From a virus (Duplodnaviria > Caudoviricetes), in the IMG/VR virus record IMGVR_UViG_3300031998_000008, positions 96,001 to 160,000 of that record: 64,000 nt of DNA, one strand, 5' to 3'. The notes below the pieces were generated by a model. The model saw nothing but the letters and a program-made list of their open reading frames with translations. It was not told where the DNA came from and searched no databases. This document shows, in pieces, positions 17,601 to 53,114 of the stretch. The translations under genes and the position numbers were made by a program. Position 1 is the stretch's first letter. Each line of letters starts with the position of its first letter.

Positions 17601-18047
17601 ATGAAGAAGATAAAAAGCGAATCCAAATTTCAAGACGAAAGTTTCAAAATTAAGATAGGGACCATGGATAAAAAGAATCCAGAGGTCATTTATATTGAAT
17701 TGGGGTCATACATATCTCCAATTGAAGAAAAGAAATCATACAAGCCTAATATTTCAAACATAGAAAGGGAAACAAAGTCGGTTGTTAGTGCGATTCTTCA
17801 AGAAAGCGGGTTATGTAAGAGTGATTTCATTTTTGTTTCCGATATAGCAGATGAACGAATTGCAAAGGATAAAAAATCATACTTGGAAATGCAATTGTTT
17901 GTCAAACCGTTAGATTCCGTCAGGGAATCCGGAAAGTTCTCAGAACTTAGCGAAAAATTCAATGAAGAGTGCGTTTCAAAGATAGTTCCATGTGTAAAAC
18001 AATACATTACAGAGAATGGCTTTGAATACTATAAATCAAGAAAGTAA
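17601..18047 (+). CDS. Hypothetical protein
   Basis: 148-aa ORF with its own promoter. Confidence 0.75.
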   Translation: MKKIKSESKFQDESFKIKIGTMDKKNPEVIYIELGSYISPIEEKKSYKPNISNIERETKSVVSAILQESGLCKSDFIFVSDIADERIAKDKKSYLEMQLFVKPLDSVRESGKFSELSEKFNEECVSKIVPCVKQYITENGFEYYKSRK

Positions 18048-18056
18048 ACTATTTAT
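18048..18056 (+). promoter_or_regulatory. Putative late promoter motif
   Basis: ACTATTTAT 15 nt before 18072. Confidence 0.7.
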
Positions 18057-18071
18057 AGGAAAAACTATAAA

Positions 18072-21361: not shown

Positions 21362-21375
21362 TTTTAATTTTTCTT

Positions 21376-21384
21376 ATAAATAGT
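21376..21384 (-). promoter_or_regulatory. Putative late promoter motif
   Basis: ACTATTTATA on the minus strand. Confidence 0.7.
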
Positions 21385-24676: not shown

Positions 24677-24699
24677 TCTTATAGTACATTAATCCACTT

Positions 24700-24708
24700 A
24701 TAAATAGT
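24700..24708 (-). promoter_or_regulatory. Putative late promoter motif
   Basis: ACTATTTATA on the minus strand before 24676. Confidence 0.7.
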
Positions 24709-26530: not shown

Positions 26531-26549
26531 TGCAAATAATTACTTTACT

Positions 26550-26558
26550 ATAAATAGT
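26550..26558 (-). promoter_or_regulatory. Putative late promoter motif
   Basis: ACTATTTATA on the minus strand before 26530. Confidence 0.7.
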
Positions 26559-28455: not shown

Positions 28456-28565
28456 GGTATATTCTCCTTATAAATAAATATGATAAATAGCATAAAAATT
28501 GTTTTTTTACTAAATAATTTGATTGGTAAGAAAATATTTTGTATAATAATAAAAATATTGATTTT

Positions 28566-30956: not shown

Positions 30957-30976
30957 TATTAGTGGTGTTTTTCTAT

Positions 30977-30985
30977 ATAAATAGT
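30977..30985 (-). promoter_or_regulatory. Putative late promoter motif
   Basis: ACTATTTATA directly after the capsid terminator. Confidence 0.7.
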
Positions 30986-34917: not shown

Positions 34918-35628
34918 TTAATCATTCAACCATGATGAAAATTTTCCTAATTCTTCAAAAATTTGGTTCTTTTCTGTTTCTTTGCTTTCAATATATTGCT
35001 GTGGAATTTGGTCTTCAGGTGTAATCCATGCTTGTGGGGTTGATGGGTCAGAAACAACGTCCCAACATACTATTTCGTAGTCATCGGCAACATATAGAAC
35101 ACCCATTTTATTCGTAACAGTACCAAGACCCCTTGAAGAGACACCAATTTTAATTCCTTGCAATATTAAGTTTGCAACTTGGTCCCCTTGACATGTAATC
35201 ATGCCATATTTTCTAAATCCTGGACTTGTTATTATTTCAAGTTTTCCAACCAATGTGTGGCCTTCCCAATGTAATTCAACAATATTGATTGCTACTCTTG
35301 AAAGGTCAATTACTGATTCGCTTGGGTGATTACATTCACCTATTGCACGTTTTTCGGCAATTTTTTCCATGTATTTTTGGACCTCACGTTTCAACACGTC
35401 TTCAGGATATATTCTTCCATTGGCGTTTTCTATTCCGAACTTTTGGAATACTGCTGAAACAATGAAAGGGTATGGGCAATGGAAATCATCGCTTACTTTT
35501 CCGTTGTTAATATCCTCGAAAAGTTTCTTGTTTTCTCCGATTTCAGGTGAAATATATCCATCGTGTTCAATAAGAAGACCAGTTCCCGTTTCACCACGTT
35601 TTATTTCTACTAAACTTCCTTTTGCCAT
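34918..35628 (-). CDS. gp21: Prohead core protease (T4 gp21-like)
   Basis: NANGRIYP, GECNHP, GVSSRGLG, WDVVSDPST. Confidence 0.93.
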   Translation of the reverse strand: MAKGSLVEIKRGETGTGLLIEHDGYISPEIGENKKLFEDINNGKVSDDFHCPYPFIVSAVFQKFGIENANGRIYPEDVLKREVQKYMEKIAEKRAIGECNHPSESVIDLSRVAINIVELHWEGHTLVGKLEIITSPGFRKYGMITCQGDQVANLILQGIKIGVSSRGLGTVTNKMGVLYVADDYEIVCWDVVSDPSTPQAWITPEDQIPQQYIESKETEKNQIFEELGKFSSWLND

Positions 35629-43008: not shown

Positions 43009-43077
43009 ATTATTTGATTGTTTTTAATCTATTATTTTCCTTTTTTTCATATAAATAGCATTGAAAATGAAAAAAAA

Positions 43078-45453: not shown

Positions 45454-45473
45454 TTATAGACAAATTATCATTT

Positions 45474-45482
45474 ATAAATAGT
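45474..45482 (-). promoter_or_regulatory. Putative late promoter motif
   Basis: ACTATTTATA adjacent to a terminator. Confidence 0.7.
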
Positions 45483-46054: not shown

Positions 46055-46103
46055 GTCAAATATTTGTTTATAGTTTTTATTATTTTCAATTTTTTATTCA
46101 ATT

Positions 46104-46112
46104 ATAAATAGT
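46104..46112 (-). promoter_or_regulatory. Putative late promoter motif
   Basis: ACTATTTATA on the minus strand. Confidence 0.65.
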
Positions 46113-46952: not shown

Positions 46953-49535
46953 ATGGCAGAGATTGAAAAAAATGCTAACGAACAATCATTTGACAACATT
47001 AATATGTCAAATGAACTTGAAGAACTTTTGGATTTTATTATTAACGATTTATCTAAGGAATTACCGACATTAACTGTTGATTTGAATTATTTCCTTCTTG
47101 GGTCTTTAGTGCAGAAGAATAACAATCTGTATAAGAGGCTTGAGATGTGTATGATGACAACAACAATGAATGCCATATATAATTCTTTCTATCAAGTTGT
47201 TTCTTCAAAGGCTCTTAGTGCTGTAAAAAGCAATAGAAAGACTAATTTTGACAATAAATTTTATGAAATAGTAAACAAGGCAAGTGAAATAGCAAAGGAA
47301 CTTGAAAGTGAAGAGGTGACTTCAGAACACGTATTCCTTGCTATTTTAGGAGATAGTGATGATGGAAACAAAATCAGGAAAGTTTTCAACAAAGCCGGCC
47401 TTACTTATGGTGTTTTCAAAGACAAACTCCAAGACAGCTTGGTAAGTTTCGATGAAAATGGTATTATGAGTGGAAATCTTGGGAACGGAATGGGCGTTAA
47501 GATTATCCAAGCAAAAACTCCTGAGGAAGCAATGCGTAAGATGAAAGAAAGCATTGAAAACGAAATGAATCAGATGACTGGTGGTAAGAAATCAAGCAAG
47601 ACTTCATCAAAAACACCTTATATAGATGAATATTGCACTGATTTGAATGCTTTGGCTGAAAGCGGTAAGATGGAGCCAATCATTGGCCGTGAGAAAGAAA
47701 TTGCACAAATCATTAGAATCCTTGGTAGGAAAAACAAGAACAACACAATTCTTGTTGGCGGCGAGGGCGTTGGTAAAACAGCAATTGGTGAAAGTATTGC
47801 CTATAAGATTGTTAATGGCGAAGTTCCTGAATTTTTACTTAACAAGAGGGTTGTTTCACTTGACATGACTGCTATGATGGCAGGTACTACTCTTAGAGGT
47901 ATGTTTGAGGAACGTGTAAAGGGCGTTATGGATGAAATCAAGAAATATAGGAATTTCATTTTATTCATGGATAATATTGGTGCAATTCTTGCTGATAAAG
48001 GTAAGAATGACTATGAAATCTCTTCAATGCTTTCACGTGGTCTTGAAACCGGTGAAATCCAAGTAATCGGTACTTCAGATTTTGCTTCTTATAGAAAGAC
48101 ATTCGATAAAGACCCAAGTTTGGCAAGACGTTTCCAAAAGATTATTGTTGAATCACCAAGTATTGATGAATCAATTAGAATTTTGGATGGCATTAAGGAA
48201 TCATATGAGACCTACCATAAGGTTAGATATGAAGATGGTGTTATCGAAGCATGTGTAAAACTTGCGGATAAGTACATTTCAGAACGTAATTTGCCTGATT
48301 CAGCAATTGATATTCTTGATGAAATTGGTTCATTGAATGGTACATCAAACGAGCCTACTGCTCTTAAAGAACTGAAGGCCCGTATTACGTTATTTGAGGA
48401 TAAGATGGATGAAGCAAAGAGGGAAAAGGATTATGAAAGTGCTGATGCTATTTCAAAAGAAATTATTTTGTTGAAGAAACAATATAACGAGGAAAAGGAT
48501 AGTTACGAAAAGGACCGTAACGAAAACCATATTCCTGTAACTGTTAATGACATTCTTAACCTTATTTCAGTTAAAACAGGTATTCCTGTAAGCAATCTTA
48601 ATTCAGATGACAAGAAGAAATTGTCAGGAATGAATGATAGGCTTAAAGAAAGTGTTGTTGGTCAAGATGAGGCAATTGACACTGTTTGCAAGGCGTTGAA
48701 ACGTAATAGAGTTGGCCTTAGCAATAATGGTTGCATGTATAGTTACATGGCAATTGGTAAAACAGGTACAGGTAAAACCTTGTTGGCAAAGAAACTTGCT
48801 AAAGAGTTATTCGGTGATGAAAAGGCCCTTGTTAGATTTGATATGTCTGAATATTCAGATAAGGTTTCAGTAAACAAACTTATTGGCTCAAATCCTGGTT
48901 ATGTTGGATATGAAGAGGGTGGACAATTGACTGAAACAATCAAAAATAAGAAACATTGCGTTCTTTTGCTTGATGAAATTGAAAAGGCTGACCCTGAGGT
49001 TTACAACATTTTCTTACAGGTTCTTGATGAAGGATTCTTAACAGATAACTCTGGCCAGCGTGTGGATTTCAAGAATGTAATCGTGGTATTTACATCAAAC
49101 GTTGGTGCAAAGGCTGCAAGTGAATTTGGTAAAGGAATCGGATTTGCTAACGATGAGGAAGAAAATACAAAGAGAATCTTGTTGAAACAACTTAAAAATA
49201 GATTTCCACCTGAATTTCTTAACCGTATCAATGATGTTATATACTTTAACACATTGAATGACGATGACCTTAATTCAATTATTAAGATTGAAATTGGTAA
49301 ACTTGAGAGCAGGTTAAATGGAATGGGATATTCCATGGAATATGACAACGATGTTGTTCAATACATTCTTAAAGAAATACAAGATGAAAAAGACTTCGGT
49401 GCAAGACCTATTATTAGGTGTATTCAAGAAAACATCGAAGACAAACTAACGGACAAACTTCTTGAGAATGATTACGAAAAAGGATATGTGTTCAAAATTT
49501 CTTGTCCTGAATTAAGTGCCGTAACAGTCGCTTAA
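46953..49535 (+). CDS. clpC: ClpC/ClpA-like AAA+ unfoldase (start revised to MAEIEK)
   Basis: Two NBDs (GEGVGKT; GKTGTGKT, LLLDEIEKA), RRFQ, PDSAIDILDE, RFDMSEY, IGF loop, GARP. Confidence 0.9.
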   Translation: MAEIEKNANEQSFDNINMSNELEELLDFIINDLSKELPTLTVDLNYFLLGSLVQKNNNLYKRLEMCMMTTTMNAIYNSFYQVVSSKALSAVKSNRKTNFDNKFYEIVNKASEIAKELESEEVTSEHVFLAILGDSDDGNKIRKVFNKAGLTYGVFKDKLQDSLVSFDENGIMSGNLGNGMGVKIIQAKTPEEAMRKMKESIENEMNQMTGGKKSSKTSSKTPYIDEYCTDLNALAESGKMEPIIGREKEIAQIIRILGRKNKNNTILVGGEGVGKTAIGESIAYKIVNGEVPEFLLNKRVVSLDMTAMMAGTTLRGMFEERVKGVMDEIKKYRNFILFMDNIGAILADKGKNDYEISSMLSRGLETGEIQVIGTSDFASYRKTFDKDPSLARRFQKIIVESPSIDESIRILDGIKESYETYHKVRYEDGVIEACVKLADKYISERNLPDSAIDILDEIGSLNGTSNEPTALKELKARITLFEDKMDEAKREKDYESADAISKEIILLKKQYNEEKDSYEKDRNENHIPVTVNDILNLISVKTGIPVSNLNSDDKKKLSGMNDRLKESVVGQDEAIDTVCKALKRNRVGLSNNGCMYSYMAIGKTGTGKTLLAKKLAKELFGDEKALVRFDMSEYSDKVSVNKLIGSNPGYVGYEEGGQLTETIKNKKHCVLLLDEIEKADPEVYNIFLQVLDEGFLTDNSGQRVDFKNVIVVFTSNVGAKAASEFGKGIGFANDEEENTKRILLKQLKNRFPPEFLNRINDVIYFNTLNDDDLNSIIKIEIGKLESRLNGMGYSMEYDNDVVQYILKEIQDEKDFGARPIIRCIQENIEDKLTDKLLENDYEKGYVFKISCPELSAVTVA

Positions 49536-49536
49536 T

Positions 49537-49568
49537 AAAAAAGCCCGATTTAGTTCGGGCTTTTTTTT
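49537..49568. terminator. Bidirectional terminator
   Basis: A6GCCCGA/TCGGGC-T8. Confidence 0.85.
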
Positions 49569-52077
49569 ATTTCATTCTTGCTCTTTTTGGAATTTCAAAA
49601 CTAAAATTCTTATTTTGAGGAACAAATAATGTATTAGTTGATAGAACATTTGTTAATTCCTTGAAAGCTGAAGAATTTGCTGAATGTATATAATACATTG
49701 GTATTTGTTCACCATGCTTTTTGCAATAATTCACTAAGAATATAGCACAATCTTTTGAACTTTTCCCATCAGTTGATGCAGCGCCTAAATCCCTATCAAA
49801 TGATATGAATTCAGGAACACCATTTTTCTGTATGTATTCAACAAACTCAGTGTAATTATGCACACAGTCAAACATTATATTATATTTTTTCATTAGTTCA
49901 ACAAACGCAATTTGGTTGTTCATTCCAACTTTACTTGTTTGTTTTCCTTGTGCGGCTAATTCAAATTGTTTGAATGGCTTTCTTGTATCATCAACCCATA
50001 ATATTTTTAGGTTTTGCTTTCTCTTGCTGTATCCATTTACAAACTCTGAGCCGTATTCAATGTTCGTTGACAATTTCTTTATTTCTTGTTCTTCAGGTGA
50101 AACTTCACGTCTTGACGGTGATAAAGATGGGTCGTTTGTAAAATTAAATCCACCTTCAGGTTTAAATAATGGTATTCTTCCAAGAGTCCAACTTTCTGAC
50201 ATTTGTCCAAAAGTTATCGGAAGCATATATCTCTTTTCTATTCCTTTTTGCATAAATTGATAGCAAACATCAGATAATGTTGAACCACCGCTTATGTTAT
50301 CATCAAAAACAATAAATAATGTTCCTTTTATTCTTTCCAATTCTTCTTGTACATGCTTTATTGTCTCAGGACTTGTTGTGTGTGGGTCATCATCAAATCT
50401 GTATATGTTTCTAAGTCCCATTCTTTCACCGTTTGATATTTTTTTGATTTCAAATGGTGATGGCCTCCATTCACATATTTCATATGGGTTTTTCAAATAA
50501 GGTTCACCATCAATTTCACTTCTTTCACCCCATAGGCGTGTTTTAATCATTTCAATAATTTTTCTTGTTCTGTTTTCTATTGATGGGCCTTTTGAATATT
50601 TGATAGGTTTAATTATCTTATATAAAGTAACTTTTGAGTCTTCATCAGTTATTTCGTTGTGATAATGTGCATCACGTATTATTTGCTTTATGTAATCAGC
50701 ATAAAGTTTGTAATGTTCTGCAATTCTGTCTATTGCGGTTTCTTGATTTTTTGCATATTTTAAGTTTTGGATACAATGAAGTATTTTTTTCGTTTGTAAG
50801 TTTACTAAATTAATTGTTTGTTGTGCTTTTTGTATGTTTGTGCTTCTGTTTATATCGTTTTGTAGGAAGTTCATAACAGAAGTTTCTCTCTTTGACCTTG
50901 GTGAATCATAAAATCCTTGATTCATTCTAACAAAATCTGAGTCAATTTGAAGATTGTTCAAGTCTTTTGTGAGTATATTTGTGTCAATTGCTTGAATTGG
51001 CATTCCACATACTTGTAACTTTGATAATTCTTGTGCCATTTTTACATTAAAGTTGCTTGAACTTTTTATTGGATAAATTGATATGGCCCTAAATTCTGTA
51101 TCAGGACGCATTCTTAAATCCTTCATATAATCTTCAACGACAATTTCAATTTTTCTTTTGAATTGATTCATGAAATCATTAAACTCGTTTGCTTCCATGT
51201 CCATTTCATATTCCTTGCCACCAATTTCTGCTTTTGCCTTTTGTGAATCAAAATAGTGTTTGAAATATTGCATTACGTATTCACCTTTAATTGATGTTAT
51301 GTTATATGACATCAATCCGCCTTTTAATTGTACTTTGTATGTGTCGTTGTTTGATTTATCCATTAAGTCGGTTTTAAGTTTTTCACCACTTAAAAGATTT
51401 CCTTTTGCACGGTCAGTTCCGTTATCACCGTTTTTCTCATAATGAATCATTGCTTTTTTACCTTTAATCCTGTCAATATATGCAGATTCATTAAGTTTAC
51501 TTTCTTCTAATTTTTTCTTTTGGATTTCAACGTAGTCAGCGAAAGGTTTTCTTTGCTTATTGCCCCTGTAAAGCCATTTTTTGAATAGTCTTAAAGAAAC
51601 ACCAGTAATAGACCTAAACCCAGTCCAACCTTTATTGTAGTTTGATAAATATGCACTTTTTGCTTCTTCTTTTGACTTGAAGCCAATCATAACTTTACTT
51701 TCGTCAAATTCACCATCTTTGTTGTTTTGGTCAATGACATATACTTTATCAAAGTCATCTGGATATGGGCCAATGAAAACATCAACGGCATCACCGTCTT
51801 TTCCGTTACCACTTGTGTTCCTAAAGTATCCATAGTGATTTTGCATGGTTACTTCACCATATCCTTTATCGTTTTTGTATTTTCTAACTGAGCCTTTGGG
51901 GTTTTCTATTGAAATTGGCATGCCTTTAACTGAAAAATGACCCATTTTATAGTTTCCGGCTTCTTTTTGCGCATCCGTTGGGGTCAAATTAACATTCTTG
52001 CACTCAGCGTCAATTTCTGACGTTGAAACTTCAGATATAAGGTGTTTGAACTGTTCTTCTGTCAATATAATTTTCAT
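49567..52077 (-). CDS. Tagged polyvalent protein: InPase domain + PRTase-like + cyclic-phosphate-processing receiver (cREC)
   Basis: MKIILTEEQF tag; KEAGNYK..ISIENPKGS..HYGY..DGDAVDVFIG..FDESKVMIGF; IVFDDNISGGSTL; LWVDDTR..ISFDRDLG..IHSAN. Confidence 0.8.
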   Translation of the reverse strand: MKIILTEEQFKHLISEVSTSEIDAECKNVNLTPTDAQKEAGNYKMGHFSVKGMPISIENPKGSVRKYKNDKGYGEVTMQNHYGYFRNTSGNGKDGDAVDVFIGPYPDDFDKVYVIDQNNKDGEFDESKVMIGFKSKEEAKSAYLSNYNKGWTGFRSITGVSLRLFKKWLYRGNKQRKPFADYVEIQKKKLEESKLNESAYIDRIKGKKAMIHYEKNGDNGTDRAKGNLLSGEKLKTDLMDKSNNDTYKVQLKGGLMSYNITSIKGEYVMQYFKHYFDSQKAKAEIGGKEYEMDMEANEFNDFMNQFKRKIEIVVEDYMKDLRMRPDTEFRAISIYPIKSSSNFNVKMAQELSKLQVCGMPIQAIDTNILTKDLNNLQIDSDFVRMNQGFYDSPRSKRETSVMNFLQNDINRSTNIQKAQQTINLVNLQTKKILHCIQNLKYAKNQETAIDRIAEHYKLYADYIKQIIRDAHYHNEITDEDSKVTLYKIIKPIKYSKGPSIENRTRKIIEMIKTRLWGERSEIDGEPYLKNPYEICEWRPSPFEIKKISNGERMGLRNIYRFDDDPHTTSPETIKHVQEELERIKGTLFIVFDDNISGGSTLSDVCYQFMQKGIEKRYMLPITFGQMSESWTLGRIPLFKPEGGFNFTNDPSLSPSRREVSPEEQEIKKLSTNIEYGSEFVNGYSKRKQNLKILWVDDTRKPFKQFELAAQGKQTSKVGMNNQIAFVELMKKYNIMFDCVHNYTEFVEYIQKNGVPEFISFDRDLGAASTDGKSSKDCAIFLVNYCKKHGEQIPMYYIHSANSSAFKELTNVLSTNTLFVPQNKNFSFEIPKRARMK

Positions 52078-52079
52078 TT

Positions 52080-53069
52080 TTACATCAAAAAATTACTGTC
52101 AAGCGTTCCATGTACGCCAATTTTATTATTCAACCAAGCATCCATGACTTTTGTCAAGAATAACTCACGTTCTGTTTTATCCAAGAACATTTTTTGGAAT
52201 GTATCAATAAGATAATCTTTCAAATCGTCAGTGTACATATATTTTAACACATTATCACCATCCATCATACCGACAATTTTGATTTTCTTTTTCTTACCAC
52301 CTTCCAATGTTGTATAATTGAATTGTCTGAAGTTGTTATCAAGGTGTTTTTTGACTATAAGAACCTTTTCAGGGTCTATACAATACGGCTTGTTCATTTT
52401 TTTATCAACAGGCATTTGCGCTTTTTGTATATCTGATTCTTTTAGAAGTTCTATAAGTCTTTTTTCCTGTTCTTCTGATATTATGAGTTTTTTACATTCG
52501 TTCATTTGTCTTGCTTGTTGTATTTTTGCTAACCTTTCTCTGCATTGTTGTAATTCAGCGAACATTTTTTGTGCTGTTTCATTGAAATCAGAACCATTCA
52601 TTATTTTGTCACCTTGGTTTTCCTTATCATTTAAAATGTCAGGTATTTTTTCACCTTGGATTAATATGTCTGTGTCGCTTTTATCGTTTTTTTCTGATAT
52701 TTGCCAACCGTCTTGGTTAATTTTTTCCGCCAATTGGTTAAACTCTTGTCCATGTTCTGGAACAATTTTCAAAACGAATAAACAATACATGTGAATCATT
52801 TCATGGAGCAATGAGTTTTGTATTGATGATTCGGTCCTGTAATATCTGTTTGTAAATGCCATTTCACCTGATGATGTGACGTTGGTGATTTTGTTTCCAT
52901 TATACTCAGCCGTTTCGTTATTATAACAGGCCCAATTATTAGCAGGACACCTATAACTAAATTTTGGCATTGGTAATTTACCACCAAAATACTTGGTATT
53001 AAATGCCTTGAAATTAGTTACAAGCCACTGTGTATTTGGGACCATTTTATTTTTATCGTATTGCTCCAT
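52080..53069 (-). CDS. SprT-like metallopeptidase with internal tag (start revised to MEQYD)
   Basis: FNTKYFGGKLP, LLHEMIH, HGQEF; KKLIISEEQEKRLIELLKES. Confidence 0.8.
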   Translation of the reverse strand: MEQYDKNKMVPNTQWLVTNFKAFNTKYFGGKLPMPKFSYRCPANNWACYNNETAEYNGNKITNVTSSGEMAFTNRYYRTESSIQNSLLHEMIHMYCLFVLKIVPEHGQEFNQLAEKINQDGWQISEKNDKSDTDILIQGEKIPDILNDKENQGDKIMNGSDFNETAQKMFAELQQCRERLAKIQQARQMNECKKLIISEEQEKRLIELLKESDIQKAQMPVDKKMNKPYCIDPEKVLIVKKHLDNNFRQFNYTTLEGGKKKKIKIVGMMDGDNVLKYMYTDDLKDYLIDTFQKMFLDKTERELFLTKVMDAWLNNKIGVHGTLDSNFLM

Positions 53070-53095
53070 GCAAATTTTCGGTTTTATCTTTAAGT

Positions 53096-53104
53096 ATAAA
53101 TAGT
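53096..53104 (-). promoter_or_regulatory. Putative late promoter motif
   Basis: ACTATTTATA adjacent to a terminator. Confidence 0.7.
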
Positions 53105-53114
53105 TTAAGGGCAT

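Follow-up and report, generated by a model that had tools for sequence, protein, structure and literature searches.

P0001 is a gene in a 64,000-nucleotide stretch of Caudoviricetes DNA (the window; positions 96,001 to 160,000 of IMG/VR record IMGVR_UViG_3300031998_000008). It is an uninterrupted open reading frame (ORF) of 836 codons on the minus strand, and its 836-aa product is composed, in this order, of an N-terminal tag, an inorganic pyrophosphatase domain (InPase), a phosphoribosyltransferase-like (PRT) module of ~450 aa and a receiver-like domain, cREC_REC. We found that the PRT module is a large separate family with varying partner domains, a point missed by an earlier note on this DNA that had been made from the sequence alone, and that this family is restricted to phages. 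We propose that P0001 would be a capsid-delivered cassette for phosphoribosyl transfer dependent on 5-phosphoribosyl 1-pyrophosphate (PRPP), in which InPase would remove the pyrophosphate (PPi) and cREC would dephosphorylate the product; in our judgement, the balance for and against this proposal is even.

The window comes from a 207,929-bp record with an estimated completeness of 56%. Since a protein identical to P0001 is also present on a 367-kb contig, we consider that the source virus is a jumbo phage, probably of roughly 370 kb and with a host among the Bacteroidales. When the INPHARED phages were searched by blastn with the P0001 gene and with the terminase-portal block, no match was obtained.

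The InPase and cREC domains

All the motifs quoted in the earlier note were found in P0001: MKIILTEEQFKHLISE at residues 1-16, LEES/LNES at 190-198, IVFDDNISGGSTL at 589-601, LWVDDTR at 693, ISFDRDLG at 758 and IHSAN at 797. The three domain calls made there were upheld, by Pfam for InPase and cREC and by structure together with invariant motifs for the phosphoribosyltransferase (PRTase); the folds agree with those proposed, and homologues keep the catalytic Asp residues.

The InPase match covers positions 1-134 of the 135 of the Pfam model and scored 167.2 bits in a search of the whole genome. Ten homologues share the invariant residues E58, D94-G-D96-x-x-D99, D116, D125/E126 and K128, the acidic ones being predicted metal ligands. 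Compared with the Protein Data Bank (PDB), the InPase profile matched the C-terminal domain of the portal protein gp19 (9b41) with E 5e-33 and acidic residues in common; this portal domain was the only structure reached in the PDB, and no cellular pyrophosphatase (PPase) was. InPase corresponds to a family I PPase minus one hairpin; it is typical of packaged phage proteins and known from portal and MuF fusions and from polyvalent proteins (PMC5512222). These results support the prediction that the P0001 domain is a family I-type inorganic PPase of the polyvalent-protein kind. Neither a second InPase nor a second cREC was found in the 208 kb (~56%) of the phage's own genome.

The cREC domain, which scored 54.2 bits in the genome search, was modelled with a predicted local distance difference test score (pLDDT) of 90.5. 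The top fold matches of this model are almost all receiver domains (Foldseek E 1.6e-4, probability 1.0; VIA Z 7.0-8.4). In 56-57 cREC domains of the family, D696/D697, S759, D761, D763 and H798-S-A-N801 are conserved, and a profile search aligned D761 with D58, the phospho-acceptor of ComE. An equivalence of cREC with the N-terminal hydrolase of the bacterial toxin ShosT was considered and not supported, the ShosT domain lying outside the top 50 fold matches of the cREC model. There is no experimental characterisation of cREC (PMC9503650); its contexts are NAD/ADP-ribose (ADPr) and RNA repair, with 2',3'- or 1'',2''-cyclic phosphates as predicted substrates (PMC7824862, PMC9503650).

The PRT module resembles type I PRTases

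No Pfam or PHROG model matched residues ~175-690. The PRTase core of the module is split by a helical insert of ~140 residues. Its AlphaFold2 model (516 residues, 63-sequence alignment) reached a pLDDT of 89.7 and a predicted TM-score of 0.83. Among 48,161 chains compared by VIA-align, the top match was ComFC from H. pylori (7p0h_A; Z 11.1, 177 residues, root mean square deviation 4.3). It stood well apart from the next matches, ~25 type I PRTases with Z 5.7-7.0, namely HGPRT, UPRT, PyrR, XGPRT, OPRT, APRT, PRPP synthetase and ShosT; in this series ShosT (8zvb) had a Z of 6.2, and the PRPP synthetases were far under ComFC. In an independent search of the ESM Atlas, the ComF family was recovered together with a Pribosyltran cluster of viral origin (TM 0.75 by target).

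The conservation of the module was evaluated on the 63-sequence alignment. P336, S339, F343, K371, D379, N386, K545, R552, F591-D592-D593-N594, T600 and D603 are invariant, and the signature loops follow the expected strands of the model. Within the extended PPi loop, of pattern PxSSSxFN, S341 and N344 are also conserved in at least 94% of the sequences. The model strand 587-595 leads into the PRPP loop, and LFIVFDDNISGGSTL (residues 587-601) carries the signature of such loops, a hydrophobic strand, DD and then x3-[ST]-G-x-T. This loop patterns with that of ComFC, LLDDIITTGTTL, and the invariant T600 is the equivalent of ComFC T165, which is required for nucleotide binding (PMC9005727). The flexible-loop motif F.IK..N..RMGL.N was also observed in a distant PRTase-like group. 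The N-subdomain is strongly conserved and family-specific (K252, SYNIT at 257-261, MHYFK at 269-273); an Atlas feature search with residues 190-325 gave no usable match, the Atlas's own model of this region being poor. Throughout the family, the N-subdomain and the helical insert have a basic character, with a median pI of about 9.1-9.2.

A divergent branch, made up of the weakest HMMER matches, provides a bridge at the sequence level. It aligned with the family by hhalign with a probability of 100% (E 3e-42, 424 columns), and it gave sub-threshold matches to Pribosyltran (17-26 bits, against a cut-off of 26.3), UPRTase and PRTase-CE. One member of this branch, P0239, matched locally the PADLOC models of ShosT and PsyrT at about E 5e-7; P0001, P0009, P0062 and P0120 had no PADLOC match at E <= 0.1. 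The model and these motifs support the assignment of the module as a predicted divergent type I PRTase of the ComF/ShosT clade.

A phage family with recurrent phosphohydrolase partners

Residues 175-690 were used as the query of an exhaustive HMMER search. Of the 135 representatives of 50%-identity clusters that it yielded, 114 had E <= 1e-10, and the longest measured 1039 aa. Among cellular genomes, the module was found in one of 185,579 species genomes, on a contig of a yak-rumen Paludibacteraceae metagenome-assembled genome. In IMG/VR it lies on 16 contigs of 27-412 kb.

Architectures were counted over ~172 full-length modules. The module stands alone in 97 of them, follows an N-terminal cREC in 35 and precedes a C-terminal cREC without InPase in 10. 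InPase is the sole partner in 6 and is combined with a C-terminal cREC in 4 (5 if P0003, a 98%-identical copy of P0001, is included); an N-terminal Cys-phosphatase is present in 4 and other extensions in 16. In total, cREC is fused 35 times at the N-terminal and 14 times at the C-terminal side, InPase 10 times, and a domain like the dual-specificity phosphatases (DSP) 4 times at the N-terminal and at least once at the C-terminal side. Thus two unrelated phosphoesterase folds, cREC and DSP-like, can each precede or follow the module, and InPase precedes it. The Cys-phosphatase has the canonical P-loop HCMQG[RK]SRSAAVG (HCxxGxSRS) and gave weak and consistent matches to protein tyrosine phosphatases and DSP, as well as to phrog_5614; the C-terminal extension of P0167 matched phrog_5614 and Pfam DSPc (2.5e-4). 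When the other N- and C-terminal extensions were compared with PHROGs, the DSP-like phrog_5614 was the only match. In a FastTree tree of the module, which has no support values and is of qualitative use only, the architectures are interleaved.

Because three unrelated phosphohydrolase folds were recruited repeatedly, we consider that the module is probably catalytic on PRPP and makes or uses a phosphorylated ribose. The fusion pattern is strong comparative evidence that PRPP chemistry and phosphate chemistry would be coupled, and we read the accessory hydrolases as domains that would improve the reaction of the module, not enable it. Since InPase and cREC coexist in one chain, their roles should differ.

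Some relatives differ further in composition. P0154, a protein of 1039 aa from another phage, has, from the N-terminus on, a HEVKH region, a DSP-like Cys-phosphatase, a tag helix and a PRT module, and is a true polyvalent relative; the similarity of its HExxH region to SprT was marginal (pairwise E 0.01). P0121, P0064, P0083, P0090, P0102, P0141 and P0150 have an N-terminal domain of ~120 aa (W..I.N.DY...I.V..RDIH.LF.HY) before the tag and the PRT module; this domain gave one weak match to HTH_33 (helix-turn-helix; P0150, E 0.005) and may bind DNA. One of the 63 aligned members matched Pfam Nmad5 (nucleotide modification associated domain 5) at E 4e-6. Stand-alone relatives adjoin genes for S-adenosylmethionine (SAM) synthetase and Dam methylases.

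A tag, a protease and a promoter-like motif consistent with packaging

A strict pattern for the tag was found at residues 3-8 of 8 ORFs and nowhere else in the ~60 ORFs of the window, a recurrence far beyond chance. Some of the tag-bearing ORFs belong to the structural block. The tag opens all 10 InPase-bearing homologues, and in other family members it stands directly N-terminal of the PRT module, even where it is internal behind another domain.

T4 gp21 cuts sites of the [LI]-x-E type and removes capsid-targeting sequences from internal proteins. The T4-type prohead protease encoded in the window (Peptidase_S77, Table 1) is a candidate processing enzyme for the tagged proteins. P0001 contains three [LIVM]xE[SAG] sites, two of which are in the linker between InPase and the PRT module, and the linker sequence PF[AS][DE]YVEIQKKKLEE[SNA]K..LNE is kept across the InPase-bearing homologues. 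The resemblance to the T4 internal proteins and Alt lies in a short N-terminal peptide present on unrelated proteins, in the [LI]-x-E motifs and in a genome-encoded Peptidase_S77; the tag of P0001 is, however, longer and of another sequence.

The start codon of TerL and those of seven other minus-strand genes, all structural or tagged, are preceded at a distance of 21-56 nt by a motif of the AACTATTTATA type, (A)ACTATTTATA. The promoter-like octamer occurs 17 times, against 8.3 expected, and (A)ACTATTTATA is a candidate late promoter of the phage. Taken together, the tag, the protease, the promoter-like motif and the L-x-E linker make it plausible that P0001 is a late-expressed protein that would be packaged and injected. 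The earlier note had described an injected nucleotide-modifying or counter-defence module; both parts of this description remain inferences from the context, that is the tag, the prohead protease, the late-type promoter motif and the occurrence of InPase in virion proteins.

With the phage polyvalent proteins (PMC5512222), P0001 shares the InPase family, the presence of several effector domains in one chain, the proposed logic of packaging and injection and the frequent zincin, here the SprT-like neighbour P0002. It differs from them by its short N-terminal tag, and the PRT module is absent from giant proteins; no MuF or portal domain and no further known virion anchor are present in P0001. 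The PRTases of invasive elements have been described as ComFC-like and 'enigmatic', and Iyer et al. proposed for them a role in DNA entry (PMC5512222). As the earlier note had it, the architecture of P0001 matches no characterised protein. The single parts, however, were already known from phage polyvalent proteins (PMC5512222). In the main text of PMC5512222, PMC7824862 and PMC9503650, figures and supplements aside, we found no InPase-PRTase-cREC protein and no link between cREC and a PRTase.

Proposed mechanism and alternative explanations

In the mechanism that we propose, the tag would load P0001 into the prohead, where the T4-type protease would trim it and may also cut the L-x-E sites of the InPase-PRT linker. 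P0001 would then enter the cell together with the DNA. The PRT module would bind Mg-PRPP, move ribose-5-phosphate to an acceptor and free PPi; candidates for this acceptor are small molecules similar to nucleobases and groups linked to a nucleic acid, both of which have been suspected for ComFC, PsyrT and ShosT. Hydrolysis of PPi by InPase would make the transfer irreversible. The earlier note had suggested that InPase pulls the PRTase reaction forward; ShosT offers an experimental precedent for that logic (PMC11961720), which may apply to P0001 by analogy. The cREC domain, or a DSP-like domain, would strip a further phosphate from the product or from an intermediate derived from PRPP; its substrate could be a 5'-phosphomonoester or else a ribose 1,2-cyclic phosphate, and the second option fits the published prediction for cREC (PMC7824862, PMC9503650). 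Early in infection, the outcome would be a PRPP-driven modification of a target or a drain of the PRPP pool, for host takeover or counter-defence. It is possible, if doubtful, that the virion-delivered protein would use PRPP to phosphoribosylate a specific target of host or phage, such as a base or terminus of a nucleic acid or a nucleotide of immune signalling, with cREC or a DSP-like phosphatase leaving a ribosyl mark and InPase making the step irreversible.

Several observations weigh against this proposal. Searched against the PDB by Foldseek, the module model gave nothing at E <= 0.001 and only weak local UPRT and APRT rows, and the hidden Markov model profile of the module reached no PRTase among PDB sequences, its only matches being spurious coiled coils. 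The Pfam check of each domain, which was positive for InPase and cREC_REC, failed for Pribosyltran: P0001 reached no Pfam PRTase model and stayed below the gathering threshold of Pribosyltran PF00156, and weak, below-threshold matches to PF00156 occurred in 6 of the 63 members (best E 0.0067). The PRTase link depends on the Z of 11.1 given by one aligner, on the motifs and on the transitive sequence bridge. Acceptor transfer is unproven for ComFC and ShosT, so that the module could be only a binder of PRPP or nucleotides. The 97 stand-alone members have no fused phosphohydrolase, and no separate cREC, InPase or DSP gene was found in the flanks examined of stand-alone modules. The P0001/P0002 pair lies outside the contiguous structural block, amid DNA-metabolism genes (Dam methyltransferase, UvrD, ClpB-like), and the tag could serve a purpose other than packaging.

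We consider rather unlikely a PRPP-depleting toxin of the ShosT type, in which water or an abundant metabolite would be the acceptor and the domains of P0001 would dismantle PRPP to ribose-5-phosphate, or to ribose and phosphate. Such a depletion would starve the host of nucleotide, NAD, His and Trp synthesis or disarm defences that need PRPP (ShosT, PsyrT, retron PRTase effectors). This reading gains from the fact that every partner domain is a phosphohydrolase and from the matches of the distant branch to the ShosT and PsyrT models. In ShosT, the toxin of ShosTA (PDB 8ZVB-D), a PPase is likewise joined to a type I PRTase, a non-canonical one whose PPi loop is extended and whose flexible loop is long; the toxicity of ShosT requires PRPP binding and the DD motif, its acceptor is not known, and PRPP depletion is among the mechanisms proposed for it (PMC11961720, PMC12961424). 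However, the PPase of ShosT is Rossmann/HAD-like, whereas InPase of P0001 has an OB-fold, and ShosT, which serves bacterial defence as a toxin and is paired with a DprA-like antitoxin, lacks cREC, the tag, the N-subdomain and the helical insert. P0001 does not fall under the PADLOC definition of ShosT (PDLC03962). Given the difference in PPase fold, the two proteins resemble each other by convergence of their architectures; the closest characterised analogue of P0001 is ShosT in logic and ComFC in structure. Moreover, plain hydrolysis would not obviously need the conserved N-subdomain, which has the look of an acceptor-binding hood, and no hydrolase activity is known for the clade.

A non-catalytic handler of entering DNA, similar to ComFC, appears unlikely. 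PRPP or a nucleoside monophosphate would then be a regulatory ligand, the module would bind single-stranded or incoming DNA and protect or guide the genome, and the phosphohydrolases would act on DNA or RNA ends. ComFC, the top structural match (PDB 7P0H), binds single-stranded DNA and PRPP/AMP, and catalysis is unproven for it (PMC9005727). It shares with P0001 the PRPP-loop pattern DD...TG.T.L, the extended PPi loop and an unsettled enzymology. The DNA-entry proposal of Iyer et al. for the PRTases of invasive elements, the basic N-subdomain and insert, and the small N-terminal domain with a weak helix-turn-helix match in some members go in the same direction. Nevertheless, ComFC is a protein of ~190 aa with an N-terminal four-Cys zinc finger, whereas the P0001 module, which is phage-encoded, measures ~450 aa and has another N-subdomain and the ~140-residue insert; no Cys cluster was found in residues 190-330. 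Given these differences in zinc finger and size, and in biological context, we consider that the module is not a ComF. A fusion with InPase would be most sensible where PPi really arises, and the invariant DD, T and basic loop residues are those that catalysis predicts.

Still less probable is a counter-defence acting on NAD or ADPr, in which cREC would open cyclic-phosphate ADPr derivatives or immune signals, the PRT module would bind ribose-phosphate or rebuild a nucleotide, and InPase would drive the reaction; it would be functionally akin to NAD reconstitution of the NARP type or to signal degradation. For it speak the described contexts of cREC, which are only NAD/ADPr and RNA repair (PMC7824862, PMC9503650), and NARP1, which is reported to use a Prs-like enzyme of the PRT fold that releases PPi. 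The cREC of jumbo phages resembles that of P0001 in its receiver fold, its conserved acidic pocket and the lack of a histidine-kinase partner; its described partners, however, are Nudix, sirtuin/KptA, RNA ligases and 2H (PMC7824862, PMC9503650), whereas here the partner is a PRTase and cREC can be swapped for a DSP-like phosphatase or be absent. A search for Nudix and PRPP synthetase in the 208 kb (~56% of the genome) found neither, sirtuin, KptA and RNA ligase not being searched, and PRPP synthetases stand well under ComFC in VIA-align.

Finally, an ordinary cytoplasmic, unpackaged nucleotide-salvage enzyme, whose shared helix would be an element of translation, oligomerisation or localisation, would suit the DNA-metabolism neighbours and the SAM synthetase and Dam methylases beside stand-alone relatives, but it is highly improbable given that the tag is common to genes of the structural block, that the promoter motif is common to TerL and head genes, that InPase domains typically occur in virion proteins and that the module matches no salvage PRTase family at threshold.

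Genomic neighbourhood of P0001

The stop codon of P0002 is separated from the start of P0001 by a 2-nt gap, and the two genes are probably co-transcribed. The two halves of P0002 are separate adjacent genes in two related phages (L008:7058-7994; L007:7609-7995), where the small one opens with KRLIITEEQEKGLIKILKES. The annotated start of P0002 at 53114 overlaps the promoter-like motif, so that translation more likely begins at the ATG at 53069. The order UvrD, SprT-like protein, tagged small protein, InPase-PRT-cREC protein and convergent ClpB-like chaperone is kept in these two relatives. The window also encodes an IF-1 homologue and another tagged multi-domain protein. The coordinates of all these features are collected in Table 1.

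Table 1. Position of P0001, its domains and motifs, and other features of the window
Feature	Residues	Window position	Strand	Remarks
P0001	1-836	49567-52077	-	
N-terminal tag, MKIILTEEQFKHLISE...	1-26	52000..52077	-	acidic amphipathic helix with [ILV]-x-E motifs
InPase, PF18823	35-169	51571..51975	-	E 4.8e-48, 162.9 bits (cut-off 26.8)
InPase-PRT linker, LEES + LNES	179-197	51487..51543	-	candidate prohead-protease sites
PRT module	198-650	50128..51486	-	predicted beta-rich N-subdomain, split type I PRTase core, three PRPP-binding loops
Extended PPi loop, P-I-K-S-S-S-N-F-N	336-344	51046..51072	-	after model strand 332-336
Flexible-loop basic residues (F.IK..N..RMGL.N)	K545...R552	50422..50445	-	both invariant
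PRPP loop, IVFDDNISGGSTL	589-601	50275..50313	-	S596, G597, G598 >= 95% conserved
cREC_REC, PF20274	692-812	49642..50004	-	E 1.2e-13, 51.9 bits (cut-off 27)
P0002, SprT-like zincin (HEMIH) + tagged ~126-aa protein		52080..53114	-	Pfam SprT-like E 1.4e-9
Late-promoter-like motif, AACTATTTATA		53095..53105	-	33 nt upstream of ATG at 53069
(A)ACTATTTATA sites, first five		21372-21382, 24696-24706, 26546-26556, 28469-28476, 30973-30983	-	
(A)ACTATTTATA sites, further		43050-43057, 45470-45480, 46100-46110, 53095-53105	-	
(A)ACTATTTATA site, further		18047-18057	+	
Peptidase_S77, PF03420, T4-type prohead protease		34918..35628	-	E 4.5e-28, above cut-off; in structural block
Strong bidirectional intrinsic terminator		49537..49566	.	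12-bp stem, A-run + T-run; between convergent P0001 and ClpB-like genes
ClpB/Hsp104-like double AAA+ chaperone		46953-49535	+	Clp_N, AAA_lid_9, AAA_2, ClpB_D2-small; convergent, position kept in relatives
IF-1 homologue, 72 aa		57607-57825	+	Pfam eIF-1a E 3.2e-24; syntenic in L007, L008
Tagged multi-domain protein, 791 aa		43078-45453	-	weak metallopeptidase match (DUF6782), C-terminal phrog_36119

Significance for phage-host conflict

Competence, defence toxins and phage polyvalent proteins are recurrent settings of PRTases of the ComFC/ShosT/PsyrT type, and no acceptor is known for any of these enzymes. The natural fusions described here are evidence that one pathway comprises the use of PRPP, the removal of PPi and an additional dephosphorylation. 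By analogy with ShosT, P0001 looks like the phage-side counterpart of a bacterial defence toxin, phage and bacterial defence having converged on a PPase + PRTase logic with unrelated PPase folds. P0001 would then be a polyvalent injected effector, of a kind already known, with an unannotated PRTase family at its core.

P0001 also offers a good case in which to test whether a genome-wide N-terminal tag directs capsid loading in T4-like jumbo phages with gut or rumen Bacteroidales as hosts, and the annotation of this family of ~135 clusters (50% identity), which has no Pfam or PHROG model, would close a blind spot. If the reading with a ribosyl mark is true, it would reveal a new pathway of 'ribosylation from PRPP' of a macromolecule or a signal in the conflict between phage and host. 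It would also give the first function for cREC, that of a phosphomonoesterase instead of a cyclic phosphodiesterase, and possibly the first tractable PRTase of the ComF/ShosT/PsyrT clade, one whose fusion partners would reveal its chemistry.

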